Shown: positions 15,624 to 45,800, counted from the first letter of the stretch. The stretch: 64,000 nt of DNA from Alphaproteobacteria bacterium (GCA_038131935.1 JAYPQH010000030.1:94302-158301), one strand, 5' to 3'. Translations and numbers: made by a program. Notes: generated by a model from the sequence alone, not told the origin.

Positions 15624-15775
15624 TATGGTGGATGTTCGTACATTCCTTTTGACGCAAAAAAATTGCTTTACAACTAATATATTGGTACAGATCTTAACCT
15701 AAAGATAGCTTTCGTATTTTACTAAATAGAATTACTATAAGATTATATTTATATATATATTTATGAGAGGCAGCG

Positions 15776-17189: not shown

Positions 17190-17262
17190 CTTGCATATAT
17201 GAAAAAACGCAATATTTGTGGTGAAAATTCTTGTGAGAAATTAAATAAAATAACAAAAGTAA

Positions 17263-19348: not shown

Positions 19349-19522
19349 GTCCCACTAACAATTAATATTGTATGATAATCCAGGAATGAAGAATTTACAT
19401 CGAAATAAGTCCCCACAATACTATAGTTGATACATAGAACAACTTACTTTATTGTTTCAGGCAACCCGGTCTTTGTCCAGAGCTGTGGTTTTAGAAAATA
19501 GCATAGAACTAGGAGAAAACAG

Positions 19523-20269
19523 TTGTTCAAGAAGCTTGTTCCCGTCACAAAAGATGCGCACAAGGCGTTCAAAATGAAACCGCTTGTTGATTTCAAGTTT
19601 GCAGGAAATGTACATTTAGCCTCTTTGATGGCACATGAGTTTGTTCGTGCAGCGTCAGTTTACCCAATAATCTTTGTTGAAGATGGTTCCGATGGGTTTC
19701 GTCCGGTTGCGTTAATGGGATTGGTACCTGAACAAAATCTCTTCATTGATGATGATGGAAATTGGAATGCCTCATACATACCAGCCATTATTCGTCGATA
19801 CCCATTCGCTCTGGCTAAGTTAGGGGATGGTGATCAGTACACTGTGTGCCTTGATGAAGAAAGCAGTTTATTTGCGAAGAAAGGTGATGGCAAACCGCTG
19901 TTTGATAAAGATGGTGAGCCTACAGTGGTTATAGATAACGTTAAGAAATATTTGACAGAGCTACAGCAAATGGATGTGTTCACAAAAGACTTTTGTAGTT
20001 TTCTGAAAGAACAAAACATGTTCACACTTTTGAACATGCGGGTAGTCGATGATGAGCAGCTAAAAACTATCACCGGTTGTTATGTTGTTAACGAAGAGCG
20101 TTTGAACAACCTATCCGATAAAGCTTTCCTTGATGTAAAACAAAAGAATTTTCTGCCCGCGATTTATGCGCATCTTCTATCTCTATCGCAGGTTGAGCGC
20201 TTGTCTGTGCTTAAACGTGAGAAATTAGCTCAAGCCAGTCTGGCTACAGACAAATCATCTATGCACTGA
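19523..20269 (+). CDS. SapC family protein
   Basis: AGGAG RBS with TTG start; EFVRAASVYPIIF, PVALMGL, YIPAIIRRYPF, YAHLLSL. Confidence 0.9.
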   Translation: MFKKLVPVTKDAHKAFKMKPLVDFKFAGNVHLASLMAHEFVRAASVYPIIFVEDGSDGFRPVALMGLVPEQNLFIDDDGNWNASYIPAIIRRYPFALAKLGDGDQYTVCLDEESSLFAKKGDGKPLFDKDGEPTVVIDNVKKYLTELQQMDVFTKDFCSFLKEQNMFTLLNMRVVDDEQLKTITGCYVVNEERLNNLSDKAFLDVKQKNFLPAIYAHLLSLSQVERLSVLKREKLAQASLATDKSSMH

Positions 20270-20285
20270 ACGTTGAATAAATCAT

Positions 20286-20984
20286 TTAAGAGTGCTGATC
20301 GTATGTTAAAGAGGAGGATTGGCTGCCATTAAGGTAATGGACACTCGAAATGGCGATTGCGTAGAACAGTTGGAGCCATTTACGATCGTTAAGCATAAGA
20401 GCAGATCTGTCGGGTAACCGATTGAGGCAATTTAAATCAACATAAAAGTACTTATTGCGGGCTGTTGTATCTCCAACCGGTTTCAGTAAGCCAACACGTG
20501 ATGCAACAAACCCTAGTTCCTGTGCTTCGCGTAACCCTTTTGCTAACAAACTAAATAAAGCCATAAGGTTTTGGGTTTCTGTGGTGTAATTCCCGTCTTC
20601 AGAAAAAATCGGGAAATATCCAGATTCACAAAAATAGGGAGAATTTTCATCTACAAAGATCTGTGCTTCTTCTTCATTTGAGCCTTTGATCAGAAATGGG
20701 TATATTCTCAGCAAGCTTGGAACTGCACTTAATTTTATAGACCCTTCTTGACAGACCAGTTTGTTCCTCTGATTTGACGCTCCGATAACCACGGTTGGGG
20801 TGAATATGTCCTGCGAGTTTTCATGTCTATGAGTGAATACAATAGGAAAGAAGCCGGATAACGTCCAGATCTCGGATAGCGTAACGTCGATTTCAGAAAT
20901 TTGAAGCGCGAACTTGAAATCTGTGACAGGTGTAAACCGCATATTGCGATGTTTTCTGCTGTTAAGCGGAACGAAGCTAGGCAT
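20286..20984 (-). CDS. Divergent SapC family protein, last gene of the secretion operon
   Basis: VPLNSRKHRNMR, FPIVF, VPSLLRIYPF, LNRLPD...LQLFYAIAIS; overlaps the secA-like stop. Confidence 0.75.
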   Translation of the reverse strand: MPSFVPLNSRKHRNMRFTPVTDFKFALQISEIDVTLSEIWTLSGFFPIVFTHRHENSQDIFTPTVVIGASNQRNKLVCQEGSIKLSAVPSLLRIYPFLIKGSNEEEAQIFVDENSPYFCESGYFPIFSEDGNYTTETQNLMALFSLLAKGLREAQELGFVASRVGLLKPVGDTTARNKYFYVDLNCLNRLPDRSALMLNDRKWLQLFYAIAISSVHYLNGSQSSSLTYDQHS

Positions 20985-22893
20985 CCCTCTTCCTTATTTC
21001 TGCCTTATTGAATGGTAGCGCTCGATGGAGCCAATCCTCATTGTCAAGCAGTTTAAGACGCTGTTTAAAAGAATTTTTCTCAAATCGATTTTGACACAAA
21101 CGGACAATACTTTTCATAATTATGCCTTCGAATTTGGGAAACATTTTCAAAACTGTAGAAAGGATCATCATTTCGAATACTCCCATTTGATTGCGGAAAA
21201 GTGCGTCATCTAGGCTCATTAATTTAAGCACACGGCCTGGGTCCCCTTGGCGCCCGCATCTACCGGTTAATTGACGGTCGATCCTAGATGATTCATTTGG
21301 TTCCGAGACAATCACATGCAGCCCTCCTTTAGACAGCGTTGCTTGATCTAATTTAATATCAACGCCTCGACCAGCCATATTGGTGGCAACGGTGACGCTT
21401 CCTGAAGTCCCTGCTTTTTCAATGAGCTGAGCTTCATTATCGTGATTAATAGCGTTTAAGACATTGTGCTGGATATTTAATTCGTCAAATATTTCCGAGA
21501 CCATCACACTATCTGAGACTGTTTTAACACCAACCAGAACTGCCTTGCCTTCTTGCTGGAGTTTTTTTGTTAAGTTTGCGACAGCAAGTACTTTTTGTTG
21601 TCTTGATTTACAGACAATTGGCTGTTCTTCGATTACTTTTCTCTTCCGGTGTCTTGGTATTTGAAGAACAGGAGTGTCGTAGACATGCCAGAACTCGGTG
21701 AAAGACTCTTTGGCAGTGCCAGTTGTGCAGGCAAGCTTTGGAAAGAGACGGAAAAAATTTTGAAAGGTCATTTGTATAAGAGGAAAGTTTGGATCAGTTA
21801 AGGGAACGCCCTCTTTTGTTTCTATGGCCTGATGCAAGCCACCCGAGAGAGTTCGTTCTGGAGTCAGGCGTCCAGTAAACTCGTCTATTAACACGATCTT
21901 TTCATGCTCTACAACATAGTGCACCCCCTTTTGGAAAAGCCATCGTACTTTCAAAGCTTGCGTTAAAAGGTCAATTACGCGCTCTGGACTCTGCCAGCCA
22001 GCAGGAGGCTTATTGCTTGATTTCGACATCATGGTTTCTGCATCGACAAGTAAAGTGACGGTTTTCCGCCTGTGGTCTAGTTTGAAATCTATTGATTGAC
22101 GGAAATTGCTGCTAGTTTTTGACGCCCAAGTTACTGCCTGATGAAGCCCTGGGATGGGTTTTGGGGCAGATATGATTAAAGGTGTCGTTGATTCATCAAT
22201 TAGCATACTGTCTGCCTCATCCACGATGGCGGAATGAATTCCTTTTTCTAGACAGATTAGGCCATCATTTTTTCCTGTTTGCCTTTTGTGCAATAGGTCT
22301 TTTAAAATATCAGCCAAAAGCGTTTTAGGCGTCACATACACCACAGAACTTTGGTAATTCTCCCGCCGAACTTCTGTGGTTTGTGTTTCCACGCACGCGC
22401 CGACGGTAAGCTGAGCATGCTCAAAAAGAGGGGCCATTTCCTCAGCGTCTCGCTGTGCTAAGTAATCGTTAGCAGTTAAAATATGACACGGCTTGCCGGA
22501 CCACCCCAGAAGGACACTGGCCATACCAACAGTGAGGGTTTTGCCTTCGCCAGTTGCCAACTCAGCCAAATAACCCCGGTGTATCGCAAGAGCCCCCATG
22601 ATTTGCTCTTTGTAGGGTTGTAAACCAAGACTTTTCTGGACCAGTATACATATTAGCGCTACACAATCGATCAGACGACCTTTCGCTGTTAATGGGTCGC
22701 GCCGAATTGCCATACGAAGGGATTCCAGTTCTTGGTTCAATTCATCACTACCACTCAATAGAAGTTGTCCCATAAGGGCTGAGACTTGATTAGCTTCAGT
22801 TTCAAGTTTCTTTAGTTGTCTTTTGCTAGATCTGGTCCTCCCGTATAGTTGGTACACGAATGAATCAAAACCTTTTTTACGTTCAGAATTCAT
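20977..22893 (-). CDS. Short SecA-like DEAD ATPase (accessory SecA paralog)
   Basis: ELATGEGKT, TANDYLAQRD, IVDEADS, LIDEFTGR, GLHQAIETKEG, ATNMAGRGVDI, RIDRQLTGRCGRQGDPG; only 638 aa. Confidence 0.93.
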   Translation of the reverse strand: MNSERKKGFDSFVYQLYGRTRSSKRQLKKLETEANQVSALMGQLLLSGSDELNQELESLRMAIRRDPLTAKGRLIDCVALICILVQKSLGLQPYKEQIMGALAIHRGYLAELATGEGKTLTVGMASVLLGWSGKPCHILTANDYLAQRDAEEMAPLFEHAQLTVGACVETQTTEVRRENYQSSVVYVTPKTLLADILKDLLHKRQTGKNDGLICLEKGIHSAIVDEADSMLIDESTTPLIISAPKPIPGLHQAVTWASKTSSNFRQSIDFKLDHRRKTVTLLVDAETMMSKSSNKPPAGWQSPERVIDLLTQALKVRWLFQKGVHYVVEHEKIVLIDEFTGRLTPERTLSGGLHQAIETKEGVPLTDPNFPLIQMTFQNFFRLFPKLACTTGTAKESFTEFWHVYDTPVLQIPRHRKRKVIEEQPIVCKSRQQKVLAVANLTKKLQQEGKAVLVGVKTVSDSVMVSEIFDELNIQHNVLNAINHDNEAQLIEKAGTSGSVTVATNMAGRGVDIKLDQATLSKGGLHVIVSEPNESSRIDRQLTGRCGRQGDPGRVLKLMSLDDALFRNQMGVFEMMILSTVLKMFPKFEGIIMKSIVRLCQNRFEKNSFKQRLKLLDNEDWLHRALPFNKAEIRKRDA

Positions 22894-22898
22894 TTTCT

Positions 22899-27744: not shown

Positions 27745-27745
27745 G

Positions 27746-29380
27746 TCACTTTTGTCCAAAAATGTTGTTGACCTGCTCACTCAAATCCCCTTGCGCTGAG
27801 TAAAGCTGAATGAAAGCCTTTGCATATTGGGTCGACGCTTCAACTTCATTAATAGTTGCTTCTAAATTTTTCTCCTCAGACTGCAAAACCTCGATTATGT
27901 TTCCTCTGCCTTGCGCTAAACGTAACGAGGCTACTTCGAGTTGTTTTTTTGTTGAGTTAGCAATTTTTCTGGCGTTGAGCCACACTTTCTCTGTCTGAAG
28001 GGCTGTCTTGTGGCCGACTAAAACTTCATTTTCAAGGTTTTGTCGTTGGCCTTGAAGAAGCAACTCTGCTTTACGTTTTTCCAGACTGGCCTTTCTAATC
28101 TTGGCATTGGCACCTTTGTTGGCGCCCAATGGCATCCTGTACTCTATCGATATTCGGCGCTCTGGATGGCCAGCCATGTCGTTAATCCTCAATGCGCTGG
28201 TGGCAGTTCCTGCTTGTTGAGACCATCCGGCATCCAATCGAATATCGAGTGTGTCACGAGCCATATCTGACGCTTGGTCAAGTTGAAGCAGGGCACGTTT
28301 GATCGCAACTTTTTGTGCTTTGATGTCGTAACGAGTGTTGAGGGCTACGGTATATAGTTGTTGCCAATCTGGTATGTGATAGATCTCTGTCGGGAGTATC
28401 GATGGATCAAACTGGATTTTATCCACCGTAAGGTTTCCTTCGGGAGCAAGAAGGATGAGTTCGGTTTTGAACCGTATCAAGTCTCGTTCAGTATTTGATA
28501 TCAGATTCTCCAGCTTATTCAGGTTGATTTCGATATCAATTTCAGACGATCGCGGAAGACGTCCATTTCTGATTAAGGTACTGACCTCCGTTTTGAGTTT
28601 TGTTAAGATGGCTACGCGGGCTTTTAACCTTTCCAAGATTAGTTGGGTTTTTAAGGCATCTATATAAACGATTGCGGCCTGTGTGGTGATCAGGTTCCGT
28701 TGGTCGAGGGTTAAGTGTTCTTGAATTTTAGCTTCCAATTCAGCGATAGCAATATCCATGTTGGTGATTTTGGCTCCTGCACCGCGCATCAGTGGCTGAA
28801 CAATAGATAACCTTAAGTCACTTCGGTACTGATAGTTGTCCATGGTGCCGGCTTTCTGCCTGTTCAAGGATGAATCAATCGAAATCTTCGTGCCGTAGCT
28901 CAACAATTTTGAGACTGTGCCCTTCAAGTCAGTTTGTTTATCAGGATACGGGTCTGGTGATCTTCCTAATAACTGATCTTCAACCGAGAGCGGTGATAGG
29001 GTGTTCCCTGCTGATGATCTTACTGTCAGCTTCGGTTCATAGATCCCAAACTGTTCAATAATATTCTCGCGAGCGACTTCTTCATCAAGCTGCGCCATTA
29101 TGAGTGATCTATTTGAGTTCAGAACCGCATTCAGGAACATTTCAAAGGAGAATGCTTCGGACTTGCCCATAGGTTGACTAGCCAACGAAGGGTTGTGTAG
29201 CCCGAGGCAGAGTGCCAGGGAAAAGTATGTGAACAATTGTCTGTTACAGCCGCAAAATGAACGAGCATTCAAAATAAATGGTCTCAGCCGGCGCCAAAAA
29301 AATAGTTCAACATAGCTTGTTCCTACTTCAACGAAGTTATTGTCGATTCCAAAAAGCAATACTTCAAGGATTTTTCCCAA
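27746..29380 (-). CDS. TolC-family outer membrane channel (true start probably downstream of 29380)
   Basis: Outer-membrane efflux pattern AVLNSNRSL, LSIVQPLMRGAG, ALNTRYDIK, EYRMPLG, IQLYSAQG; signal-like segment ending LAS. Confidence 0.88.
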   Translation of the reverse strand: MGKILEVLLFGIDNNFVEVGTSYVELFFWRRLRPFILNARSFCGCNRQLFTYFSLALCLGLHNPSLASQPMGKSEAFSFEMFLNAVLNSNRSLIMAQLDEEVARENIIEQFGIYEPKLTVRSSAGNTLSPLSVEDQLLGRSPDPYPDKQTDLKGTVSKLLSYGTKISIDSSLNRQKAGTMDNYQYRSDLRLSIVQPLMRGAGAKITNMDIAIAELEAKIQEHLTLDQRNLITTQAAIVYIDALKTQLILERLKARVAILTKLKTEVSTLIRNGRLPRSSEIDIEINLNKLENLISNTERDLIRFKTELILLAPEGNLTVDKIQFDPSILPTEIYHIPDWQQLYTVALNTRYDIKAQKVAIKRALLQLDQASDMARDTLDIRLDAGWSQQAGTATSALRINDMAGHPERRISIEYRMPLGANKGANAKIRKASLEKRKAELLLQGQRQNLENEVLVGHKTALQTEKVWLNARKIANSTKKQLEVASLRLAQGRGNIIEVLQSEEKNLEATINEVEASTQYAKAFIQLYSAQGDLSEQVNNIFGQK

Positions 29381-30508: not shown

Positions 30509-30890
30509 GCTGTCTATTTTTTACTTGGCAAAGGTGGAATAGCATCTTGCCCAAAATCAAAACGAATTGATCAATATGATGCTGGAGCTAATCAGTCCTT
30601 GTTTGGTTGATAATTTGCCCTATTCAGCAATTAAAAGGTTTGCTGTGCTCCGAGATTATTTATTATATTTCAATTCATTAACGGTATTTTTTTTTGTTTG
30701 ATCCAATTAGCTTTATTCTTTGTTAAATGGGTAGAATTATTTATCGGAGAATTTATACTGCTATGTTGTGGAAAAGATGTGAAAATTGTGTAGCAGTAGT
30801 GCATTAGACGAGAATTGATGGCGGCAAAAGGTAAAAAAAATAGACGTAGCTGGCTTACGCGTCAGAAAAAGCGTACATGGGAGAATTCTC
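30509..30890 (+). repeat. Right arm of the inverted duplication: decayed regulator 3' end, promoter region and first 24 codons of the giant gene
   Basis: Reads YLAKVE*HLAQNQNELINMMLELISPCLVDNL versus regulator YAIKIDQDLAQNQSELMSLMVELMSTCVIDDL. Confidence 0.88.
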
Positions 30891-33800
30891 GAAGTCTGGT
30901 TGACCGCCTAGAAGACAGGATTTTATTGTCGGCCGATCCTCTGCTTCAGGCGGTGCGTATCGCCTCCGATAGCGAGCCAAGCATAATTTTTGTTGATGCG
31001 GAACAACAAGCCACCACCGTTGAGGTTACCAACAGCAATGTTGGATCGATTTCGCTGGATCTTACATCTCTTGGTGATATGGCGAACCAGAATCCATTGC
31101 TAACGCCGATCGATACAGACTTGGTCCGTCTAGACGCAACCATGCTCGCAATCGAGCTTGGTTTGGGCGATGCCAGTTTGACGGACTTGTCGCTCTCTCA
31201 GGAGAGTGATGGCACGCTTAGGCTTGGTGGTGATGGCGTTGTTGATCTGCTGTTCCAAGCACCAACTGAGAGCCTTGTGATACGTGGAGGGTTGGGTCTT
31301 GATTCGATAGAGCTAGAGTCTTTTTCGGTAGCTACTGCGGACATATTTATTGAAGCGGAACATATCAAGGTTGGTGAGGCAGCAGAGATATCGGTAGGCG
31401 GAGCTCTGACTTTGAATGCCATAGCGGGTTTTACTGAACGCCACACCGGATCCTTAGACGCACTTGCACTAGCCTTTGCCGATTCAACTTACAGTTCTTC
31501 AATCGAGGTTGACGGTAAAGTTTCGGTCTCTGGTGGGATGGTATTTGCCGCAGAAACTTCCCTTGCGCTAGATATTGATCATCAAGGCGATATAACGCCA
31601 GCCATACTGCGTCCAGAATTAGTCTCTGTTGCGTACATTGGAGCGAGTGCCGAACTTAATGCTGGTTGGTTGGAGCTGACCTCTGAAACTTCAGCTGATA
31701 TTGAGGTGGATGTTGACGGAGGTCTGGGCGTTATCTCGATAGACCTAAACCAAGTTAGTAGGTCGATGGTTTCAGGTGGTGCTAGCCTTCATCTCCATGA
31801 GAATGAAGGCGGGACAGTTCTTCTTGTCGATTCGTTTGGTCAGACCGGCTTAGATGCGCGATTTGCGCCAATTATCAATGATGGTGACCTGCAGGGATTG
31901 ATGGCCGGCCAGGATAAAACAACAGATACTGCTGGTTTTGATTTGGCTTATGCTGATTTTGCTATCAACAGAGATGTTTCTGCTGTCCTGGGTGATGGTC
32001 TAGACGTTTTGACAATTGGATCTCTAGATCAGCCAATAGCTGGTAGTATTTCAGTTGGTGCCGGCGCTCTAAATCTTGGTGACGCGGGTCTGAGTGTCTC
32101 CATCGATTCAGACATCACTGGATTGCAGTTGCTGACAGTCACCGATCAAGTCTTGGCGGAAATAAGGCGTGCAGAACTTGACGTGTTTGATATTGAGGTC
32201 CTTGCATATGCTGGCTCGTCAGCGGACTCAACGTCCAAGGTGGTTCAAAATCAGATGTATGGTTCTGTAGTTGCTAGAGTTATAGACTCTAGGCTTGGCG
32301 CCTCAAATGACATCTCAATCTTGGCTACAGATAACTCGACTTCCAGCGCGTTATCCTCCGATTTTGTGGCATCGGGTAGTCAATTGAAAGGCCTTGATAT
32401 TGGTATTGCTTACGCAACTAACCTTTGGTCAAGAGATATTTTGGCTCAGATCATCAATTCGGATGTGACCAGCTCCAATCTTTATTTGGAAGCGCAGGCA
32501 CTTGCCATATTAGACGCAGAAGTTGGGTCTCAAATTGTAGCCGAGGTAACGACGGGCGAGTCTGACCCAAGCTTTTCTATGGGGGGGGCGGTTGCCTCGA
32601 ATGAGGTGATGGGCCAGGTCCATGCGACGACGTCCGGTGGCTCTATTAGCGTTAACGGACTCTCTGTCCAAGCTTCCAATCTGATCTCTTTGCATTCCGA
32701 TACCGCCGCGGGTGCGGCATCTGCAGGTGATACCTCGTCTGCATTGGCGTTATCCTTTAATTTAATTGGATACACGATGACCGGAACCGTCGGTATGATT
32801 GCTGATTCAATACTGGGTGTGGATTCAGGGATCAAAGCAATGCCGCTTCATACCCTTGCTGAACTTCTTGATACTGAGGTGACCGTTAGCGGTGATATGA
32901 CGGTCGATGCTCGCAACGCGCTGTCGGTCAATTCATCCATCGACAGCTCGATCATGGCTGAAGTCGATGACCTGAGCGAAGCAATTGCAGTGGGTGCTGC
33001 TGTTGCATTGTCAACCAACCGATATACGAGCTCTTCAGTCACACGGATAATGGGTATATCAACCGGCCAGGCACGGCCATCATTGATCGTTGGTGGCGAT
33101 CTTTCGATTTCAGCGACAGACGAATCTGAGATCCTATCAAGTTCAGATGTTAGCGTGAATTCATTGGGTGGTGGGATTGCAGCAGGTGCGCTTATTTCCA
33201 ATAACCATGTTGATCGAGACGTATTGGTCGACCTATCTAACCGTGACATAGACGTTACTGGAACACTCTCAATGGCTGCACTATCGACCGGTATCCTGCA
33301 GTCGGCTGTAGAAGGTATTATCGAATTACCTGGTGCAATTTCATCGACCGAGCAAGGAGTCGATGATGGTTTAGGTATGAATGCTTTGGTGGCGTCTAAC
33401 ACAATGTTGGGTTCAACCATAGTCCAGTCCGATCAGTCAAATATGAATATCGGCGGTGATTTACTGTTGTCTTCAAAAACTTCAGGTTCAATTGATGCAA
33501 CTAACAGTGCTCTGACGTCGTCCTCGGGTCGTTCGGCCGGAGTAACAACAGCTTTTAATTCTATCGGATGGCAGTCGCAGAGCTTTGGCTCTCATTTGGT
33601 CGATGGACTCCTTGGTTCTAGGCTTGCTGATCAAGATCCGCTCAACACAACTGTTGATCTCGATGCGAGTGACATATCGATCAGCGGTGATCTTAATATC
33701 AAAGTTACACAAGTCCCCGAAATACGTTCGGTCGTTTCCAACGTTGCAGCGTCTGAGGCGAGTGGAGGAATGGGCTTTGTCTTGGCTACAAACAGAATTG

Positions 33801-36800
33801 CAAGGGACGTTGCAGCGGAAGTTCACCAAGGTGTTGATGTTGGCCAAGAAAATACTTCGCTTCAATTGGCTGGCGACATGACTGTCTATGTAAGTGATAC
33901 GTCTGGTGTTTCGGCGGTTCTTGATCTCGCGGCGTCTGGTAGCTTGTCATCTGTAGGTGCATTGGTCGCAAGAAATGATATCCGCGGAACGGTGGACGCA
34001 GTTTTAGGTGGCGTGCGCCTTGATGTTGGTGGCAGTCTTTCAGTTTTGTCTCGAATGGCTGCCACGATAACCGCCAGCGCCACAGGTGATGTAGTGGTAT
34101 CAGAAGATGCAGGGCTTGATAGTTTGGCTGCCAGTGCTCTGATATCGTCAAATACAATCCTGGGTGACTCTACCATTGATCTAAGTGAATCGATCATTGA
34201 GGTTGGTGATGAAACAGAAATACTTGCGTCCCAGATCTCAAAAATATCGGCCAGCAACTCCGCCAACGCGACGGGTTCCCGCGCCGCTTCGGGATTGATT
34301 GCCTTTAATGCGATTGGATGGGATGCTGGCAATTTGTTCGAGCAAGTCGCTACTGGTCTATTTAGCTCCAGCTGGCTTTCAGACAGCCCTGCTTCCGCTC
34401 CACTTGTGTTAGACGGTACTCATATTGTTTCTGGTGGTGGGATAGCCATGGAGGTGAGCTCATCATCAGATATAAGTGCCGACATTAAGGCTGGGGCTAC
34501 AGGCACATCCGGTGCAGCTGCCTCAGTTGTTCTGGCTACCAATTTGGTCAGTTCGAGGGCTCATGTCGCTGGTCGTCGAAGTGACTCAGCAACTCGGAAT
34601 ACAGAACTTATTTCGGGTGAATCCATACAGATTTTTGGTAACGATACATCTTCAATCATAGCCAATGTATCCAGTGATGCATCTTCAGATGGTGGATCGC
34701 TAGCGGTTGGTGGGGTGATCGCGCGAAATGAGATTGTGAGTTCTACTACCCTGGACTTCGACCATGCGAGGCTGGAGGCAGATGGTGATATCGCGATCAT
34801 TGTAAAGTCAGGAGCCGATATTGAATCAAGAGTTTCAGGTGTTGTCGAGGCATCGGTCGGGTCTGAGTCCAACGCTACGTCTCTGGCAATTAACGGTGTC
34901 ATCGCAACCAACGCGGTACAGAATAACGCCGACATAATCTTCAACCAGAGCCTTGCCGATGCGGGCAAATCAGTCACCATGAGCGCCTCTAGCCCATCCC
35001 GTGTGACCGCAAATAATACCGCGATTGTGACCTCGGATGGCCCTGCCGCTGGGGTAACTCTGGCCTTCAACACCATAGGAATGGCGCCGTCAAATATTTT
35101 CGCTACCAGCATCGACATACTATTAGGAGGCGTTCTTGCGAACGAGTCACCAGCTGGCAGCCAAGTCCTTGTAACCGGATCAAACATTAAGGCTGGAGGA
35201 GAGATTGAAGTTGCGGCAGGAGCGAGCCTAGAGGGTCATCAGCTCGGATCATTGGTGTCTTCGACAGTTGCTAACGAGGCAACGGCGGGTGAGGCCGCTG
35301 CAAGCTTTGTTCTAGCGACAAACCTGATCAATAGTAGAAATCGTTCGCTCATATCTGCTGGCAATCCTGACGACCTCGACCCAGCTAATCTGGAAAGTCT
35401 CGTCGATATATCGGCCGCTGGCGGTATATCAGTATCCGCTAGCGATGCCGCGATCATACGTTCTGATATCTCTTTGTCAGCAACCAGTAGTGGGGCTGCG
35501 GCTGTTGGAGGTGTGATCGCGACCAATGACGTAACGGCTGACACGATCGCGACACTTGATCGTATCAACTTGCGAGCCGGCGACACGACGATTGCGTCCC
35601 TCCAAATGGCTGCTATTGATGCGACCGTTAAGGGAGAAACCGTTTCAATCGATGACTCTGGTGCTGACGGGTTGGCGGTGAATGGTCTAATCGCATCAAA
35701 TGCTGTGAGGGGAGACACATCCGCACAGATTAGTGGTGGAGAGTTTCTTGTTGTCGGAGACCTCTTGGTAGACTCGAGGAACCGTGGATCGATTAGCTCC
35801 TCTAATGAAGCGACGATGGTATCTGGTTCGGGAGCGGTTGGTGCGACGCTGGCGTTTAATTCTGTCGGCTACGAGAAGCAAAACATTTTATCAAAGACCC
35901 TAGACGCAATTGTCGGTGGTGATCTCGGTGTGGAGTTGCCTTCTCAGTCAGATGCTCGAGTGACTGAAGTGAGTTTAGATGTGTTGGGTGATGTCTCAGT
36001 GGTCAGTCTGGCTGAGGGTACGATCTCGGCGATGACTACAAATGCGGCATCGAACCAGGGCTCTGGTACCACGGCAAGCATGGTGCTGGCTACAAATGCG
36101 GTCGTTGTAGAGACCGATGCGATCATTGAGGACTCAGGCCCAGTCAAGGATTCTGACGCGATTCGGGTCGGTGGCGATCTCCACGTAGCGGCCTCCAGTG
36201 CCTCGACCGTTCTGGCCGACGTGCTGGTCTCTGCGTCAGCCATAACCGATGCATCGTCGCTAGGGTCGGATTATGAAGCTGACTTCCTGTCTAGTGATGG
36301 AGAGCAAACACTGCAACTGGGCAATGTCGTCCATCTGACTCGACCATGAGGCCGGTGGGGACGCTGACTCACTGTACCTTATATGGGTCCAAGCCATGAG
36401 ACGATCGACCTTACCGTCACGGACTTCTCTGACGATGGCTTGTGGTACAAGGTGATTCCACCACAAGGCAAGGTTGCGGAATTAATTGCCAGCTTGGAGT
36501 CGGCCCAGATGCCGTACTTCGAGAAGTCCCTGTCCATCAGCGACCTGACGATCGCGGGTCAAACGTTTGATGTCGGCCTTGGGGCGGGGCTCGGCTGGCG
36601 CGACGTGGGGTTCCTTGATTTCTTGGCAGGTAATGCCGATCCGGTTACCTCAGAGATCTCGAAAACTGAGACGGGCCTGCACATTATCACCCCATCTTTG
36701 AACGTCGGCGGGCGCGAATTAGTTGGTCCCGAGTTGAACCTGGATATCGACCTTCCTAATCCGAAGTTACCCTATACGGTGTTTGAGGAGGAGCTGGGAT

Positions 36801-39800
36801 CCATTGAGCATGGCGGTCAGGTCTACTCGTGGGGTATCCGTGGCTTTGCGGGTTGGGAGGACACCACTCTACTCGAGATGATTAACGTCGACGCTCTGTT
36901 AGATGGAGACGTGAATCCGATCCCACCCGATATAGGCTTCGAGTTCTTCGTCGATGAATTTGTCATCGACGATCTCAGAATAATCCCGCCCGAGGTTCGG
37001 ATTACGCCCCCAGAAATTTGGTTAACGTTGTTCGGGAAACCGTTGAAACTGGCCTACGGCGACGAGATTGTGGTCACCGCCCCGAGTGAGCTGGACGACT
37101 ATATCGATGCTGATGCGGACCCGCTAGCGCTCACGATCCCTGAACTGAACCTCGACCAGCTGCTGTCTCCCACCAAGGTTGCCCAGTACCCGTCAGACTA
37201 CTGGAAAGACGCGCTGACCATCGATGTGCGTAACCCTGAGCTTCCGTACTTTGAGACGTTCCTTGCTGCCGGCTCCTTTGAAATTGACGGGCGAGACTGG
37301 GATATCGGTTTAGATGTATCAGTTGGTTGGGAGAACCAACGACTGTTCGACATGCTAGCTGGTGATTTACCCGTGAGTGGGATCGAGTTTGGACAGACGG
37401 GTTTTGTCCTACAGTCTCCAGGGATCGATGTTGCGGGATTTAGTCTGGCAGGGCCAGCGCTTGGAATTGATCTGGTGCTGCCCGACCTGGATTTGCCTTT
37501 TTACAGCTTCAGTGACGTAGTTGCGGAGTTTGAGATACCGGGGACCGGCGGAGAAACCGTCGGACTTGGCATTAACGCGGAGCTTGGTTGGAAAGACGCC
37601 ACTCTTATGGATCTGGTTGATGTTGGTGCCTGGATCGAGGGTAGCTTCGAGTCGGCCGAGCCCGTCTATGATTATTCCTTTTTCCTTGAGTACACCGACG
37701 ATAACGGTTCCACGGTGGGTGCGGTTCCCGATGTCATCTCTTTGGCCCTGCCCCAGGCTAGGGCCTCGGTGTTTGGCAAGAATGTCTTGTTTGGTGTCGG
37801 TAGCGGGCCTGTCGAAATCTCTCTGACGGACGTCTTGGGTGACGATTTTGGTGGCCTGATCGACGCGTCGATGGACCCGATTGAGATTGTCGCGCCATCG
37901 ATCGATTTGAATAGCCTGGTCGACCTTGATCCCAGGACATATCAGCCGGATGGGAGTGAGATTCTGATCAACGTCCTCGATACGTCGTCGTTCGAGAGCG
38001 CATTTTTCGAGTTGATAAAGGTAGTACCTGGAAACTACGGGTTCACTGACTCGCCCCTGGTTGCGGCGATTGACGTGCTGGCGGATGAGCTGATTCCGTT
38101 CTCGCTAACTAGCTTCTCGATAGACGACCTGATGCCGACTGAGGCATACGAAAAGATCAAGTGGTTTGTCGACGAGGGTGCTGAGACTGTTGATCTAACG
38201 ATCCCCAGTCAGGTCTATGATATTCCGGGCATCGGGCTCTTCTTAAGCAACCCAATACTCCCTAATATTGAACAAAGTCTGGACGCGACGACGATCGAGT
38301 TGGCCGGAGAAATGTGGGATATCGGCCTGTCCGCGTCCCTCGGTTGGCAGGGCGCGCGACTGATAGATGTGTTGGCTGGCGAGGCGCCGGCGTCTGGTCT
38401 CAGCGCCCTCGATACTGGTTTCGGAATCCAGTTCCAGCCAGAGGGAATAAACCTAGCCGGCTTCAACCTTCAGGCGCCCTCGTTGCAGGTTGACCTCAGA
38501 CTGCCCGACCCGGATCTCCCATTTATCGAGTTCGACCAGACCATCGCCGAGATCGATATTCCCGCGAGCAACGGGGCAAAGATCGGGGTAGGCGCGTCCG
38601 CGAGAATCGGGTGGGAGGATACCTCTTTGCTCAACTTGATCGACCTGGACGCGCTACTGAACGGTGAGTTCTCAGCAGTTGCGCCCGAGTTCGAGATAGA
38701 CCTGCGGCTCGAGTACACAGACAGCGAGGGTATGGGATCCAGCTTCCTCCCGGGTGAGATACATTTGGCCTTGCCCGACGTGAAGCTCGAGTTGATGGAT
38801 AAAACGCTGCTCCTTGGGTTCGGGTCGAGGCCGATCGAGTTCGAGACCAGCCGCCTAGGCATCAGCTCGGGCTTTATCGATGAGTCACTCGAGCCTTTGC
38901 TGATCGACCTCCCGACCCTCGACCTCAACCGACTGATTGACCCGACAGCAGATCTTTCTTTGTTGACCGACCTGAGCGACCAGACGTTTTACTACCAAGT
39001 CCAAGGGTCTGAGATTGAAGTAGACGTAACCGATCTGGATAGCTTAGAGGCTGGCTTCAGGCGACTGATCCAAGTTCTACCATCCGAGTTTTCGATCACG
39101 AACCCGACAGCGACCGGCGAGTTATTGGGTCTCGCGATTGATACGGAATTACCGCTACTTGAATTATCCGGCAGCCTGCAGGGCTCGGGGCTCATTGATT
39201 TCAACCTGTCGAGCTTCGGTCTGGAGGACGTACTGACGTCCGATATATTCGAGTGGGTCCAGCCGCTGATCGATCCGGAGGCGAGCCCTGTCACAGTTAA
39301 TATCCCCGACTTTGATTTTGGCACCCTAGGGTCACCGATCCCTGTGCTCGACCAATTTTTGGAGCAGATCGAGTTTTTACCATCCGAGCTGCGTGTCTAC
39401 GACCCGTCACTGATCGCCCAGGTCACCTTCGAGCTGTCAGAGCTGCTCTCAGAGCAGCCCGGCATGAGTCTAGTCACGAGCGTCTTACCTTTACCGACGA
39501 GCTTTGACAGCACGATTGATCAGGAGGTTTCGGTTTCAGGGTTAGTCAGTGACGCACTTAGTCGGCTCGGTATCGACTATCTCCGGTTTGGTTCGGATGA
39601 GACGGGTACCTACATGGCATTCAATGTCATCGACGTGTTACCGGAGTCGGTCGCGGATATCCTGGGTATATTTGTTGATCTCGATGACCCAGAGATACGA
39701 TCATTTGAGATCCCAAGCTTTAGTTTCGGGACCATCGACATTAACGCGCTTATCGGTGGCGACCGTTCGTCAGCGAGCACACAGGCCGCGTCTTCAAGCC

Positions 39801-42800
39801 AAACTCAAACAGTTACCACGACAACAACGGAACAGACCACCGAGGCACCTGTCAATGAAGACTGGGTTGCCCTCGACAGCGTAACCAACGCGCGGAGCGG
39901 TCAGTCTGAGATACAAAAGCTAACGCTCGACACGAAGGATGTTGACTTTTCTACCGGATCGATTGGAGCCAGCCTGGGCTTGGGCCGCATGATCACCGAC
40001 CCGATTGAGATTTTGGAGTTAGGTGAGTCGAGGGACGCGATCCAGGCCGTAAGTCTGCTCAGCGCCTACGACCTTGTCGGGCACTCAGTCCCGGCGAGCT
40101 CTTACGAGCTGACCCTGTCGCATGGAAGGCAGCCGGTCGGCAGCAACGAGAAGTTCCGTTTTTACTTTGAGGGTGATCCAGACGTTCAGTCGAAGACAGC
40201 TCGATTCTTGTCGACACAGACGTCCCGGCAGCCCGATGAAGTTGTGACCGCTCTCGCGGATTTGCTGGGAATCCAGGGTACAGCAGAGCGTGTCTCACGT
40301 GGCGTATATACCCTGGGCGGGATCACTGCCGCCTACACATCGAATGCTCCCGCAAACAATCAGCGGATCTCTATTACCTTCTCGGATACCTTGGCTGAAC
40401 GCCTGGACGGGGTTGGTGAGCTAAAGGTCACGATGATTACCCCGGGATCGAACCTGAGGCCGTCACTGGAAGCCCTGGATGGTAGCGACCTGCCGCCGGC
40501 GACGTTCGCATACAGTGTGAGCTTGGGAGGCCAAAAGACCAAGGCGGACTTTATCGCGCCATCGTCTCGAAGCCTAGCCGATATCGAAACCGCGACAGAA
40601 TCTAACCGAGCCAGTCTCGAGAAGGCGCTGGAGGACCTGGTCGGCTCAGGGAACGTGTCGGTAGGCACTGACTACGGCTCAGAAGACGCGTGGCTATTCG
40701 TGGTGACATTCCAGGGGCAGCTCGCCGGGCAGCAAGTCGGGTTGGTGTCGGTTGAGGCGTCCGGGGCAGCCGATGGTTCGTTGTTGGTCGACAGCGCACA
40801 CCTGGTTGAAGGCCGTCGGGCCACAGACGCCACGATGCAGGCTGCGCTTATCGAGGCAGGTCTAAACGACGCATTCGGAGGCACCGTGGCGCGTGTCGAT
40901 GTGTCGGACAACAGCGCTGTCGACGCGGTTGTGTACGAGATCCGCTATACCGATCAGCTCGGTGACCTTGACCTACCTCAGATCCGTAACACCAGCCCAG
41001 TCGATGGCCTGGTCGTAACCGTAGACACGGAAGTCAACGGCAGCGCCGCGAGCGGACCTCGATTCGTGCTGGACCAGGCATCTGTCGAGGATGCCTCTAG
41101 CTTTGACGTTAGGGTGTCAGTCAATGGTGCCCAGTACATCGCGAGCGCTCTTGATTCTGATATTTCTGCTGACGCGCTGGCGTCCGCGATCAAGGGCTCG
41201 GAGTACCTGTGGGTGACAGAGCTCGAGACGGGCGAAATGATCGAGGAGATATTTAGGTTTTCCGACCTAGGCCTCGATCCGTTAGTCACCCAGGCATCGA
41301 GTGCCGACGGGGGTCAGGGCTATATCATCACGTTCGCCGGCGACGTCTCGAACTACCCGCTGGACGGGATCGAGATCCGGCTCAGCGGTTCGGTACCAGA
41401 GCAGTCAGACCCGGCTAGTCAGTCACCAGATAGGGACGCATCGGCGGTCGGCGGCATCGTCGCCAGGAATGACATCAGAAGCACTTCCGTCTCAGGTATC
41501 CTGAATTCTTCTGTCTCCGCGTCGGGAATCTCGATCTCTTCTACCGACAACGGAATAGTAAGAGCCACCCTCGACGCTACCGCAGAGGCCGCCGGGTCCG
41601 AGGGTGATGGGATGGCAGTCGGTGGCATAATTTCGGCAAATATCGTGCAGGGTGGCGCGTCAGCGGTTATCGAAAACAGCCGGGTAACATCGCAGGGTGA
41701 TGTGTCGATCAACAGCATCAACAGCGCCCACATCGACGCCACCAATAACAGTGCCGTGACCGCTGGCGAGACGTCCGTCGGCGCGACTCTCGCGTTCAAT
41801 ACCGTCGGATACGAGGCCTCGAATATCTTGGCGCAGGCCGCTGATGCACTCGCAGGCGCTGGCTTCGCGGTGAAGAATCCGAACCACACGATTGCCCGGA
41901 TAGTCGGCTCCGAGATCACCGCGTCTGGTGGCCTCGTCGTTGACGCACGCTCTGAGGCATATATCCGGGCGAATGTAGATAATGAAGCAGTCTCTTCTGC
42001 CGCCGCCGCTGAGGGTAAGTCGAAGGGCGGGGTCTCGGCCGGTTTCGTGCTGTCCAGTAACTTCATTGCGGGCGATACAAGAGCATTAGTCGACAATGAT
42101 GGAAATACATTATCTGCCGGGCTTCCTGGTCTAACCGTTTCCGCGGTCGATGATGCGGCGATCGACTCACAAATCAACCTTACCTCGGCGGTCGAGGCCG
42201 GAGGGTTGGGACTGGGCGATGCCGCCAGATCGATCATGGATTATATCGGCATTACCTACACCGATCATTCGGGTATCCAACGCCTCAAGGTCGGCGACAG
42301 GGTCAGGTTAGGTTCAGCAGAGTACGGCGAGCTGGATAGTCCGACAGAGATCCAGACCGGCGAACGGGTCACGCTCCAAACAAACATCGGGAACGGTGCC
42401 GCGGGTCAGACTTATGAATATCTTGGTCAAGACCTGCTGACGAACGCCAGATTTGCCGAGCAGGACTTCTCTGATACCTCACTGTGGAGACGGCTGCTCG
42501 GTGACCCCGGAATGGTCTACGTTTATACCGGACCTGGTGAGGCACTGGACCTATCACAGACTGATTACACCGATACGTCACGCTGGACCGCCCTAGACCT
42601 TCAGGGATTTGTCGAACTGGGGCTGGACGTACTCGATTCGATCGGTGCCGAAGATGGCTCAACCGCGGTGGGCGGACTAATCACGAGGAACAGCCTCGAT
42701 GGGTTTACCTCGGCCAAAGTCTTAAATTCAGATATCGTTAGTCAGGGTGATGTGGTTGTCGAAGCCACGCGGTCGGGTCGCGTAGTCGCGGCTGATAACA

Positions 42801-45800
42801 GCGACGTATCGGCTGGCGGCACAGGCCTTGGGCTTGTTGTGGCTACTAATAACCTTCTTGGGGGGACGTGGTCTGAACTAGCAGGCAGCAGTGTATCAAC
42901 TGTCGTCGCCGGCGCTTCGGGGGGTGATCTTAGGGTTCGGTCCGTTAACGATGCCCTGATCAGCGCGACGGTGGCGAGTAAGGTAAAGGCCAAGACATCG
43001 GTCGGGATCACCCTCGCGTTCAACAGTATCGGGTACTTAAACACGAACCTACTCGACGACCTCGCCGCCTTGGTGACCCGTGCCGACAATGTCGAGCCGG
43101 GACAGGCGTTCGCAACAGAGTCGTGGGTCAGCGATAGCTCTCTCAACCTGTCTGGCAGCCTTGTCTTGAATTCGGACTCGGCTGCGACCATCGATGCGGT
43201 CATCAAATCATCGGCGCTTTCGGTCGACGTGGACAAGGACAAATCGAACAAGTCCGCGATCTCCATCGCCCCGGTGGCTGCGCTGAACCGGATAGCCTCG
43301 ACCACGGTCTCGCAACTGGCCGGGAGCCACGACCTGACTGTAGGCGGAGACCTCACGATCGACGGCACCAACCGGTCGCGGATACAGGCCGAGGTCAGCG
43401 CGTCCTCAATAGCTCTGTCAGCGGGTAAGACTGGCTCCAAGTCGGTGTCTATCGGTATCAGCCTAAGCCGCAACGAGATCGACTCGTTGACTGACGCCGG
43501 GATAACCGGCGAACCCGGGAACCGACCAATAATTTCTATTCTTGACGGCGCGCTTTCAATCCACACAACTAGGGAGGCGTCTATCGTCGCCAACGGCAGC
43601 GCGTCCTCAGTAGCGGTATCGGCCAGCCCCAAGGGAGGGCCGTCGGTTGGGGGCGGTGGTACGCTTGCTCTCAACCGTATCTCCGGAACCAGCGACGCTG
43701 GCATCGATGACGCTGTGGTCGAACTGCTCGGTACGGCCGATGTCGGACATCTCACTGTCCGCTCTGACGACCAATCAAAGATCGACGCGCAACTCAGGAC
43801 AACGGCCGTGTCGGTATCGGCAGGGAAGTCGGGTAAGGCTGTCGCGTTAGGTTTTTCTGCTGCGCGAAACATCATTGGAGCTGGTCCACAATCTGATCTG
43901 GCTTTCGATCTCCGATCGAGTGATTACGGCTCTGAAAATCGACTGAGTGCCTTGTCAACTGGAACTCGTGTTCTGGCCGATACCGGCCTCTTATCAGGCG
44001 CGGTTTTCGAGTACATCGGCCCCTACGTTGAACCAAAATCCGACGACGAGGACGGCGAAGACGGACTCGACCTGACCACTGTTGACTTCCACGACGCCGA
44101 CCGCTGGCGCGAATTGACCTACCTCGCGACCGATTCAAATGCGCGGGTTGTTGTGGCTGACAGTGAGCTGACCGCTCCTGGTGATGTGGTGTTCGATTCC
44201 ACATCGTCTGCCCAGATTAACGCCCGCGTCCAGTCGCTATCTGCGGCGGTCGGGGCAGGGGCGGGCGGCTCCGGGCTCTCTGCCAGCGCGGCCGGTGTCC
44301 TGGCACACAATCTCATCACCAGCGGCAGCGAGGTTCGAGTGTTGGGAGCCGGGTCGTCGATGGTAGACGCAGCGACCATCGCGATATCCTCTGACAACGC
44401 TGCGTCTATCGATGCTGTCGCGGGAGCCGCCGCGCTGGGTGCGTCGCTGGGTGTTGGCGGGACCGGCGCGTCGGTCGCGGTGGGTCTCTCTATCGCACTC
44501 AACGAGATCGACTCGGATTCGCTCGCTATTGTTGAAGGCGTCGATTTACGAGCCTCGTCGGGTGACTTGACGGTCGAGGCTAAGGCCTCAGGTATCCCAG
44601 TACTCGAGGATCTAACGTGGGACGAGATGGTCGCAGCGGGGCTTGACGCGTCCGCACTGGATGCGCTTGCGAAGCCGGCGGATTTAATCGATTTGATGAG
44701 CAACGATGGTCGAGAGTGGGACTTCCTCGAGACAGATGGGGTCGTTCAAATCGAAGACGGTATGAAGGTCCTGAGGGCCAACGGCGATATCTATGAGTAC
44801 GATGACGACGATGGGCCGATCAATCTTAGCGCGACAGATTTCTCAGACGGCTCTCTGTGGGATATCGTTGATCGGCCCACCATCGACCTCGAGAATGGGT
44901 ACCGGGTCCGGGTCGACCTGGAGCATTCTAGTGGAGGGCTCGCGGGCCGCGTATACCGCTTTGTAGGGCCTGAGGAGGACGACGTAGAGCTCTCCTCCGA
45001 GAACTACGCTGACGGCAGTCGCTGGGTCCTTGACGATGAGTACGCTGATCCGGCGGATGAACGGCGCCTGGTTGAGGTATTGGCCGGGGCCGGGCTCGAG
45101 ATCCCGAGGGCCGAGAGTATCCTACCATCGGCTACCTACAGCAGCGACTACGATAATCACTGGGACTTCACAAACGAAGACGGAGAACAGGACATCGAGG
45201 ACGGTGATCTTATCGGTGACACCGTCAGCGGCTCTATTTACCGATACACGGGCCCGGACGAAAATGAGTTCGATCTAGGCGACGCTGATTTCAGTGACAG
45301 CGATCTGTGGGAGGAGGTAATTGTCCGCGCTGATCATGTCGTTACCGACCCGTTCCGTTCTGTCACAACCGGTGATCTGCTTGTCGCCTCTCCAGGGGGC
45401 TACATCGGTGTTTTTGAGTTCCTCGGCACGACCTCCCGAATGAACCTCGCGTCGGTCGACTACGGAGACACGAGCAACTGGGCCAGTGTTTCTTGGCACG
45501 ACGGACGTCTCGGGCGAGACCTGTCGATCGAGACCGATGACGTCCTTCTGGTGGCTGGAGACAATGGTCAGATCGAGGCCCACCAATATAAAGGCACTTC
45601 CTCCGACATTGTGTGGTCACAGGTCGACCTCTCGGATGGGTCTCAGTGGCAGCAGCGGTCGGTGCACCTGGTTCCTAATGGCTCCGATAGCGAAGTCACC
45701 ACAGGGCAAGTGGTTCAGATCACGATGGACGGTGGAACCCGCATGCTGCGCTACCTCGGTGAGACGGCCGTTGTGTCGCTTGCCACCCAGGACTACACCG

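Follow-up and report, generated by a model that had tools for sequence, protein, structure and literature searches.

SecA is normally inseparable from SecY. What, then, does a SecA paralog do when it lacks the parts that engage SecY and is encoded among genes for an outer membrane factor and membrane fusion proteins (MFPs)? The question is raised by a locus of an Alphaproteobacteria bacterium (GCA_038131935.1 JAYPQH010000030.1:94302-158301); the whole analyzed stretch, 64,000 nucleotides long, is referred to here as the window. On its minus strand, an operon encodes in this order a TolC-like outer membrane factor, a short HlyD-type adaptor, a long adaptor, a fusion of an M50 peptidase-like region with HlyD (M50::HlyD), a short SecA paralog and a SapC-family protein, the genes being separated by short overlaps or spacers (Table 1). 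We propose, with a probability of roughly 0.6, that the short SecA is a dedicated, SecY-independent SecA-family ATPase of a tripartite, envelope-spanning exporter for giant proteins that carry an LEPR-XLL motif.

In the 638-residue protein, Pfam identifies SecA_DEAD (residues 21–402, E 3.3e-75), SecA_PP_bind (PF01043; residues 255–358, E 4.8e-20), which represents the preprotein cross-linking domain (PPXD), and P-loop_SecA (residues 423–516, E 6.5e-41), with no match to SecA_SW (PF07516, wing and scaffold) or SEC-C. The motor motifs comprise Walker A GEGKT (115–119), DEAD (225–228), TGTA (391–394), TNMAGRG (504–510) and GRCGRQGDPG (544–553), and their residues are invariant in an alignment of 32 members of the short-SecA family. 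An earlier, sequence-only reading of this DNA had described these motifs as intact, together with a preprotein-crosslinking-like region that it quoted as YVVEHEKIVLIDEFTGR. This region spans residues 326–342, and the Pfam domains, the motifs and the 32-member invariance all agree with the description. The same reading placed the end of the protein about 90 residues past RQGDPG, at a clean stop coupled to sapC. We counted 85 residues between RQGDPG and the C-terminus, and there is an 8-nt overlap between its TAG stop and the start (ATG) of the SapC open reading frame (ORF) downstream.

Comparison with solved SecA structures defines what is missing. A phmmer search aligned residues 23–624 of the short SecA with residues 15–608 of the 783-residue chain of B. 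subtilis SecA (E 1.2e-108, identity ~35%). Since the alignment ends at B. subtilis residue 608, at least the last 175 residues of SecA have no counterpart in the short protein. The wing/scaffold domain, the two-helix finger and the C-terminal tail are all absent, with approximately 40 residues of the scaffold helix kept; the SecY-engaging C-terminal third is therefore missing, as had been claimed from the sequence, given the lack of PF07516 and the point at which the alignment halts. The wing domain, two-helix finger and C-terminal tail are used by canonical SecA to interact with SecY and SecB. An AlphaFold2 (AF2) model built from the 32-sequence alignment (pLDDT 88.3, pTM 0.85) places two short helices after the second nucleotide-binding domain (NBD2), followed by a long helix (residues 586–625) and a disordered tip (residues 628–638). 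In this model, the long helix corresponds to the initial portion of the SecA scaffold helix, and no more of the scaffold follows. The closest superposition was obtained with 6itc_A (TMq 0.84, root-mean-square deviation 3.3 over 617 columns). Other substrate-engaged SecA–SecY structures gave similar values (5eul_A and 3dl8_A, 0.82 each; range 0.80–0.84), compared with TMq 0.69–0.71 for free SecA, a SecY-bound-like superposition that, being the conformation of a predicted model, is not strong evidence.

These features bear on one alternative explanation, in which the short SecA would be a SecA2-like accessory ATPase that works through the housekeeping SecYEG and delivers special clients, be it the adaptors, the TolC-like protein or the giant protein, to the periplasm. 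The intact PPXD and both NBDs would suit such a role, as would the resemblance of the model to SecY-bound SecA, and known SecA2 proteins are also trimmed (M. tuberculosis SecA2, 4uaq, 705-residue target, TMq 0.66). The profile scores argue otherwise: all four SecA2 models of NCBIfam remain far under their cut-offs (TIGR03714, 412 against 930 bits; TIGR04221, 329 against 725; TIGR04397, 429 against 1085; NF012136, 312 against 1100), and in the protein itself nothing is left past the first ~40 residues of the scaffold helix. The canonical SecA models of NCBIfam (the TIGR00963/PRK12904 equivalogs) are likewise under their cut-offs (473.4 against 800, 468.6 against 814 and 480.6 against 862). We return to this alternative below, where the gene neighborhood and the candidate cargo provide further points.

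The protein is shorter than any canonical SecA, and the assembly has frame problems elsewhere, including a split housekeeping secA and split giant ORFs. Both observations would fit a gene without function, either an artefact of assembly or what is left of a duplicated secA that is decaying. The homologs give a different picture. The best 120 of 7,908 matches at E ≤1e-20 are 547–692 residues long, share 35–97% identity with the short SecA at scores of at least 409 bits, and in no case (0/120) carry SecA_SW. Among the matches listed, those longer than 1117 residues carry SecA_SW in 120 of 120 cases and score at most 370 bits; no fused or longer form of the short clade was found among them, which is weak evidence that such forms are lacking. 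The tail after the RQGDPG-like motif measures 66–93 residues, with a median of 81, in the 48 complete relatives with a recognizable motif, so that homologs do end at a similar point. Length and end point are thus kept in more than 100 relatives from many phyla. A tblastn search of all frames of the window with the C-terminal regions of 10 canonical SecAs (the host's own and nine others) returned nothing below E 0.1, the best match (E 0.14) lying within the M50 gene. Together with the invariant motifs, the confident model and the presence in the host genome of two divergent copies (37% identity), each in a complete operon, these results leave a functionless remnant with practically no probability: the homolog lengths, the conservation of the locus, the invariant motifs and the negative tblastn search effectively refute it.

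The phylogeny points in the same direction. We used a quick maximum-likelihood search in IQ-TREE (LG+G4, 629 columns) with 37 short SecAs, made up of the host's two copies, one additional paralog and every second one (34) of the 68 complete sequences found at related loci, and 27 canonical SecAs, of which 15 (of 29) came from relatives, 11 from ten genomes that bear the system and one from the host itself. The canonical row L030 belongs to a genome that is flagged as unpublished (G040), and no result rests on it. The tree comprised short SecAs and the canonical SecAs of relatives and carriers, without Gram-positive SecA2, and within this set a single branch separates the 37 short from the 27 canonical proteins with a Shimodaira–Hasegawa-like approximate likelihood-ratio test (SH-aLRT) value of 100. 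The best 120 homologs are short, the short SecAs of the tree are set apart from the canonical ones, and the view that the gene is not decayed holds on grounds of conserved length, invariant motifs, this clade split and a canonical SecA elsewhere in the genome. According to the accessible part of Kamneva, Poudel & Ward 2015 PLoS One (PMC4452313), their tree places the short clade as sister to actinobacterial SecA2, which would favor a SecA2-like role.

The host genome contains three SecA genes: the window copy, a short copy of 657 residues on contig C8 and a canonical SecA with SecA_SW on contig C18. The two short copies, the pair mentioned above, sit in different, well-supported subclades (SH-aLRT 100 and 99) and therefore do not represent a recent duplication. 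A canonical SecA was also present in all 10 of the other system-bearing genomes that were checked. In 40 relatives of the host (one of the same genus, 84% complete, and 39 of the same class), we found no second strong SecA_DEAD gene; the short SecA is therefore not vertically conserved among the relatives searched, and this absence fits horizontal acquisition.

Several further observations concern SecA genes. The housekeeping secA on C18 (L007 4225-7001) is split into ORFs of 156 and 779 residues that overlap by ~30 nt, and a single TAA falls within the match. The pattern resembles a frame break of one base and probably reflects an error of the assembly, which is 90% complete and consists of 67 contigs. 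An open frame of 1727 residues at G008:C9:3996-4583 matches SecA_DEAD only in part (108.5 bits, profile positions 30–213) and represents a different SecA-derived architecture. Some genomes carry two short SecA paralogs, namely G409 (Magnetococcales; L154 and L157) and G401. L154 pairs with L104 on the branch nearest to the canonical SecAs (SH-aLRT 98), which suggests an early-diverging second subfamily. Finally, the short SecA of L040, from a record titled as an Akkermansia muciniphila metagenome-assembled genome, groups with Comamonadaceae (SH-aLRT 99) in a SapC-type layout of Burkholderiales, reflecting either a mis-binned contig or a recent transfer of the locus.

What, then, does the short SecA travel with? 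In the window, no sec genes adjoin it, and no ABC transporter domain was detected in the 11 ORFs scanned between positions 18950 and 30405. The outer membrane factor stays below the cut-off of the TolC family model TIGR01844 (55 against 225). The N-terminal domain of the long adaptor comprises 280 residues and is cytoplasmic; it is a GAF domain in relatives and matches weakly in the window copy. For SapC, no relative was found among solved structures at E ≤1, nor any NCBIfam match. A second full operon, with SapC, OEP, HlyD, long HlyD, M50::HlyD and short SecA genes in that order, is located on contig C8.

To place the operon among other genomes, relatives of the fusion protein were collected with an alignment of 18 fusion proteins from a set of one genome per prokaryotic species, which yielded at least 594 relatives among 599 candidate stretches. 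The locus counts given here cover the best 80 of these. The 80 loci span Verrucomicrobiota, Beta- and Gammaproteobacteria, Thermodesulfobacteriota, Magnetococcales, Chlorobiaceae, Fibrobacterota, Elusimicrobiota, Methylomirabilota, Campylobacterota, Phycisphaerae and others, and include a TolC-like gene in 54 cases, a long MFP in 69, a short MFP in 56 and SapC in 14. Linkage to SecA was counted where the sequence continues for 2100 bp or more past the fusion gene, as it does at 70 loci. A SecA-like ORF directly follows M50::HlyD on the same strand, starting within 600 bp, at 67 of them, and lies elsewhere in the cluster at one (L049). All seven SapC-bearing loci in the tree (7/7) fall within the two subclades that contain the host's short SecA copies. 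This fixed link to the M50::HlyD gene counts against a route through SecYEG, as do the diderm hosts and the lack of SecY2 or Asp genes in the operon.

The fusion protein is the membrane component whose gene directly precedes that of the short SecA. Its HExxH and NPLLRFDGY motifs (H214, E215, H218, N310, P311 and D316) are invariant in the 18 fusion proteins, indicating that the protease site is under selection. The AF2 model of the fusion (pLDDT 79.9, pTM 0.56) was compared with 48,161 PDB representatives. Residues 21–108 resemble recognition elements (RREs) of ribosomally synthesized and post-translationally modified peptides (RiPPs) that were solved with leader peptides (6jx3_B, Z 9.2, 84 of 85 residues; 5v1u_A, Z 8.8), as well as PqqD (5sxy, Z 8.6) and TigE (8vpo, Z 8.9); in these RRE matches, 83–89 residues align to chains of 84–94 residues with Z-scores of 8.6–9.2. 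The predicted strands (29–36, 39–46 and 52–56) and helices (57–65, 72–82 and 90–102) follow the winged-helix layout of an RRE, and an ESM Atlas feature search with residues 8–112 returned PqqD clusters first (0.94, 206 of 256 features). Residues 138–393 resemble site-2 proteases (RseP, 7w6z, Z 10.4; SpoIVFB, 8vjl, Z 9.7; M. jannaschii S2P, 3b4r, Z 9.1), with a Pfam M50 score below cut-off (17.5 against 27.2), and residues 450–713 resemble MFPs including MexA, EmrA, MacA and HlyD (Z 10.6–14.4). Matches below the NCBIfam thresholds include daptide_HExxH (176 bits, cut-off 300) and RiPP_HExxH_LiaK. The fusion is accordingly predicted from its modeled folds to combine an RRE, a site-2 protease and a membrane-fusion adaptor, with the N-terminal domain as a putative leader-binding RRE.

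We also predicted the complex between the short SecA and residues 1–360 of the fusion. The ipSAE value was 0.38 (runs 0.36, 0.38 and 0.43), compared with 0.01 for the best of three controls; the runs share at least 90% of their contacts, and the partner has a pLDDT of 66. Of 157 solved complexes, 116 reach the mark used for such predictions, as do 2 of 215 mismatched pairs; at values of 0.60 or below, it is reached by just 18 of the 157 solved complexes together with both mismatches. At this value, the prediction lends weak support to binding between the short SecA and the fusion.

A candidate for the exported protein lies on the other side of the operon. Separated from its first ORF by 410 bp and encoded on the opposite strand, an ORF of 1844 residues carries an LEPR-XLL motif at residues 29–49 (nt 30899–30961; NF012209, 24.3 bits, cut-off 17). 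The ORF of 6328 residues that follows it is a probable continuation of the same cargo. No Pfam families were found in the giant ORFs, which are Cys-free, Lys-poor, acidic and rich in G/A/S/D/V/L. The C-terminus of the cargo lies beyond the end of the window. The giant stretch as a whole could represent a single gene exceeding 11,000 codons, interrupted either through faulty assembly or by genuine changes of frame. Further long ORFs overlap in different frames up to the window end (55297-56565, 56228-58159 and 58056 onward). RNA-library contigs of close relatives carry small indels around the junction of the 1844- and 6328-residue ORFs (36300-36420), and the split may not be conserved. The G+C content shifts from 40–43% in the operon region (16001-30000) to 55–64% in that of the giant ORFs (30001-64000), even though the two seem to form one functional unit. 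The giant ORFs themselves have 55–63% G+C, compared with about 42% for the operon.

The association of LEPR-XLL with the system extends beyond the window. When the 2.48-Mb genome was scanned with NF012209, the window ORF was the single match over the cut-off (29.8 bits), and none of 14 control genomes had one. By pattern, a large ORF with LEPR-XLL occurs at 19 of the 80 related loci; NF012209 exceeds its cut-off beside the system at 17 of 80 (87 large N-termini were tested, the other 70 giving no match), and at 14 of these LEPR-XLL loci the gene starts immediately after that of the short SecA, in the same orientation. All 10 system-bearing genomes checked contain one to three LEPR-XLL matches (19–36 bits), in open frames of up to 18,012 residues. 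In a sample of 401 genomes of the class, of which 31 have fusion relatives at E ≤1e-20 and 14 have NF012209 over its cut-off, LEPR-XLL was found in 10 of the 31 genomes with an M50::HlyD relative and in 4 of the 370 without (odds ratio 44, Fisher p 1e-9, a p value overstated because the genomes are not phylogenetically independent). Orthologous fusions above 460 bits are present in 3 of the 401 genomes (the host, G000, and G188 and G324), too few to test the short SecA itself against LEPR-XLL; these three genomes also have the three best LEPR scores of the sample, on the same contigs as their fusions.

The leaders of the candidate cargo share a basic N-terminus followed by a core resembling (F/V)E.LE.R.LLSA(D/E)P. 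They are charged and unlike a hydrophobic signal peptide, a further point against delivery through SecYEG, which on all of this evidence appears distinctly improbable. The giant proteins with N-terminal LEPR-XLL are the likely cargo of the apparatus. Our literature search found no paper that ties LEPR-XLL to this apparatus. A 2026 preprint on Chlorochromatium (10.64898/2026.03.19.712371) describes, in its accessible part, two symbiosis proteins of Chlorobium chlorochromatii, 36,806 and 20,647 residues long, that bear an N-terminal LEPRxLL and are flanked by sapC and tolC. According to the same portion of the preprint, they are co-expressed with an acquired 'secA' (Cag_1676) and are said to lack known transport signals.

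How might such an exporter work? Its parts would be the TolC-like factor, two HlyD adaptors (one short, one long and GAF-like) and the inner-membrane fusion that combines the RRE, the site-2 protease and a third adaptor. For its binding partners, transport direction, leader cleavage and ATP dependence, we infer the following scheme. The LEPR-XLL leader of the giant, Cys-free, repeat-rich neighbor would be recognized by the RRE domain, while the short SecA would dock on the cytoplasmic face of the fusion protein, in place of SecY. The unfolded chain would be gripped in the PPXD/NBD2 clamp of the short SecA and fed, driven by ATP and N-terminus first, into a duct formed by the three adaptor paralogs and the TolC-like protein, and the site-2 protease domain would remove the leader. 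More tentatively, and at somewhat less than even odds, we envisage an unnamed secretion route for giant proteins that resembles a leader-guided bacteriocin exporter scaled up thousand-fold, in which the RRE would read LEPR-XLL, SecA would thread the chain N-terminus first, possibly co-translationally, into a hetero-oligomeric adaptor/TolC duct, and the leader would be cut within the membrane.

A number of points weigh against a dedicated motor in such an exporter. The literature search found no bench experiment on any family member. The operon encodes no polytopic inner-membrane protein other than the fusion, and we know of no site-2 protease that acts as a protein conduit. In canonical SecA, the element usually credited with pushing is the two-helix finger, which is missing here. 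The case for an RRE comes from a predicted model together with a feature search, with no PqqD (PF05402) or other Pfam family in residues 1–160 of the fusion at E ≤0.01; the complex score falls in the weak range; and an LEPR-XLL gene lies inside the fetched flanks at just 17–19 of the 80 loci. Versions of the apparatus without SecA also exist. No SecA-like ORF occurs within 10 kb at two of the 70 loci (L075 and L117). In G188, a 98%-complete genome with a single SecA_DEAD gene, an orthologous fusion (466 bits) lies beside a GAF-adaptor, a short adaptor and an LEPR-XLL ORF, and G045 and G060 contain OEP-HlyD-HlyD-M50::HlyD clusters with no ATPase gene. These variants imply that the short SecA is not universally required; it may have been added as a motor, or may serve in targeting or holding, rather than being the only energy source of the system, and housekeeping SecA may serve the variants without it. 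The sequence-only reading had gone as far as a motor repurposed for a non-SecY channel. Its support comes from the gene context (67 of 70 loci and the TolC/HlyD operon) and, weakly, from the predicted complex, and the SecA-less versions correct it with regard to the energy source.

The SecA-less variants also give room to another explanation, in which the short SecA would be a cytosolic holdase, unfoldase or targeting factor that binds the nascent giant, perhaps at the ribosome, and hands it to the RRE-protease-adaptor complex, export being driven in some other way, by the proton-motive force or by folding outside. The occurrence of such variants beside LEPR-XLL genes speaks for this explanation, as do the absent two-helix finger and the retained clamp. 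ATPase motifs that are invariant throughout the family, on the other hand, argue for a working motor, and both the tight translational coupling to a membrane component and the weakly supported docking fit a membrane-associated subunit. We regard a purely cytosolic role as rather unlikely and retain the dedicated exporter ATPase as our preferred explanation.

The window gene is a further member of a family that was described in 2015, and belongs to a SapC-linked subclade. In its accessible part, the work of Kamneva and colleagues (PMC4452313) describes "secondary SecA_DEAD domain proteins" beside HlyD, a weak Peptidase_M50, GAF-HlyD and sometimes OEP genes, and proposes that the SecA_DEAD protein replaces the ABC transporter as the ATPase and that the M50-like protein may form an inner-membrane pore. 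The inference drawn by the sequence-only reading is in essence this published hypothesis and is not new. As far as that account is accessible, the window gene agrees with the family in having SecA_DEAD without SecA_SW, in its M50-like/HlyD, GAF/HlyD, HlyD/biotin-lipoyl and sometimes OEP neighbors, in the co-presence of a canonical SecA, in forming a distinct clade and in a patchy distribution resembling that of horizontal gene transfer. The accessible text names no cargo, RRE, SapC or SecA-less variants (PMC4452313). Beyond it, the last gene of the window operon encodes SapC and is translationally coupled, and the operon faces an LEPR-XLL giant gene. The literature search found no later experimental work on secondary SecA_DEAD proteins, and the one paper it turned up that cites the 2015 study was unrelated. 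New here are the predicted RRE/site-2 protease/adaptor architecture of the partner, the LEPR-XLL giant cargo and the SecA-less variants.

Comparison with better-known systems clarifies what is shared and what differs. With canonical SecA/SecYEG, the short SecA shares the DEAD-type motor, the PPXD clamp and the first stretch of scaffold helix, but it is without the wing, the two-helix finger and the C-terminal linker/zinc finger, forms a separate clade and scores under the cut-offs. Like Gram-positive and mycobacterial SecA2, it is a second, specialized paralog of SecA that serves particular surface proteins, which are often very large. SecA2, however, keeps the scaffold and the two-helix finger and uses SecY or SecY2, whereas the partners of the short SecA are of the TolC/HlyD type and the SecA2 models score far under cut-off. 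The ATPase of the engineered E. coli SecA-N68 is deregulated, its inhibitory C-domain being gone. The boundaries of that protein (PDB 5k9t; TMt 0.67, 576-residue target) are nearly identical to those of the short SecA, the difference being that N68 is a laboratory fragment and the short SecA is natural.

Among exporters, type I secretion of giant adhesins (HlyBD-TolC; LapA and SiiE types) likewise combines MFP and TolC-like parts with a giant, acidic, Cys-free, repetitive cargo encoded nearby. The present operon differs in having no ABC gene, three different MFP paralogs and a signal that is N-terminal LEPR-XLL rather than C-terminal/RTX. The joining of a predicted RRE to a protease and an exporter recalls leader-dependent export of RiPPs and bacteriocins (RRE/PqqD; peptidase-containing ABC transporters; daptide and YydH/LiaK HExxH proteins), from which the system departs in that the candidate substrate has thousands of residues, the motor is a SecA paralog rather than an ABC domain, and curated cut-offs are not reached. 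The sapCDEF S-layer locus of Campylobacter fetus, the source of the Pfam name SapC, also has a SapC gene by type I-like secretion genes. The C. fetus sap system uses an ABC transporter, whereas the window operon has no ABC gene, and SapC is present at just 14 of the 80 related loci.

The coordinates of the features are collected in Table 1.

Table 1. Features of the exporter locus and the adjoining giant ORFs, in window positions
Feature	Coordinates	Strand	Basis or remark
Second SapC-family gene, convergent, 248 aa	19523..20269	+	Pfam SapC E 5.9e-67
SapC-family gene, 232 aa	20286..20984	-	Pfam SapC E 4.8e-34
Short SecA paralog, 638 aa, ATG start	20977..22893	-	NBD1, PPXD, NBD2 and start of scaffold helix
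C-terminal helical tail of short SecA, residues 564-625	21019..21204	-	AF2 model and B. subtilis SecA alignment
Preprotein cross-linking domain of short SecA, residues 255-358	21820..22131	-	Pfam SecA_PP_bind E 4.8e-20
M50::HlyD fusion (predicted RRE, site-2 protease and MFP), 723 aa	22899..25070	-	stop 5 nt before SecA start
Long MFP, 546 aa	25067..26707	-	cytoplasmic N-domain (GAF-like, weak here), one transmembrane segment, HlyD
Short HlyD-type MFP, 289 aa	26911..27780	-	RND_mfp 96 bits, cut-off 94.9
TolC-like outer membrane factor, 544 aa from leftmost start	27746..29380	-	Pfam OEP E 4.6e-16, over cut-off
1844-aa ORF, N-terminal part of giant candidate cargo	30815..36349	+	NF012209; divergent from operon
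6328-aa ORF, LktA_tand_53 repeats	36383..55369	+	same frame, 33 nt past stop of 1844-aa ORF

Some observations around the two operons are recorded for completeness. Three small ORFs in the window (26664-26933, 29640-29870 and 29932-30405) gave no family matches, and none was matched in the 80 loci; they may not be genes. An HNH endonuclease gene (15055-15702) and yidC (11733-13658) lie a few kilobases from the operon, and the HNH gene together with the composition shift may mark an island boundary. RNA-library contigs (four runs from two studies, 95–99% alike) match parts of the operon, such as 21610-22233 and, across the SecA/fusion junction, 22430-23080; such contigs may hold DNA and do not prove transcription, and we did not count them as evidence of expression. 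Upstream of the second operon, C8 1-6273 (L135, L006 40-2274) contains ORFs of 249, 378, 378+ and 744 residues, one of them with a weak hemagglutinin-repeat match (PF13332, 26 bits). No LEPR-XLL match was found in these upstream ORFs, which could be cargo fragments on a short contig.

Through the partner architecture, the cargo link and the SecA-less variants, an orphan module becomes a testable secretion pathway. A widespread, conserved SecA that is shorn of its SecY-engaging parts and travels with TolC/HlyD genes implies that export across two membranes is energized in a different way. The link to LEPR-XLL provides a concrete candidate substrate and signal, in a group of proteins that includes some of the largest known from bacteria, and a way of reading and removing this signal is suggested by the domains predicted to bind the leader and to act as protease. 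The system is carried by cultured strains, for example Pseudomaricurvus alkylphenolicus KCTC 32386 (L091), Thiomicrospira microaerophila ASL8-2 (L118) and, according to the accessible part of the 2015 study, Methylobacterium extorquens AM1 (PMC4452313), so that knock-outs and leader-fusion reporters are feasible. If our proposal is true, a giant-export route would explain how LEPR-XLL proteins leave the cell in many phyla, including the Chlorochromatium symbiosis proteins of 20,000–36,000 residues, as far as these are described in the accessible part of the preprint.

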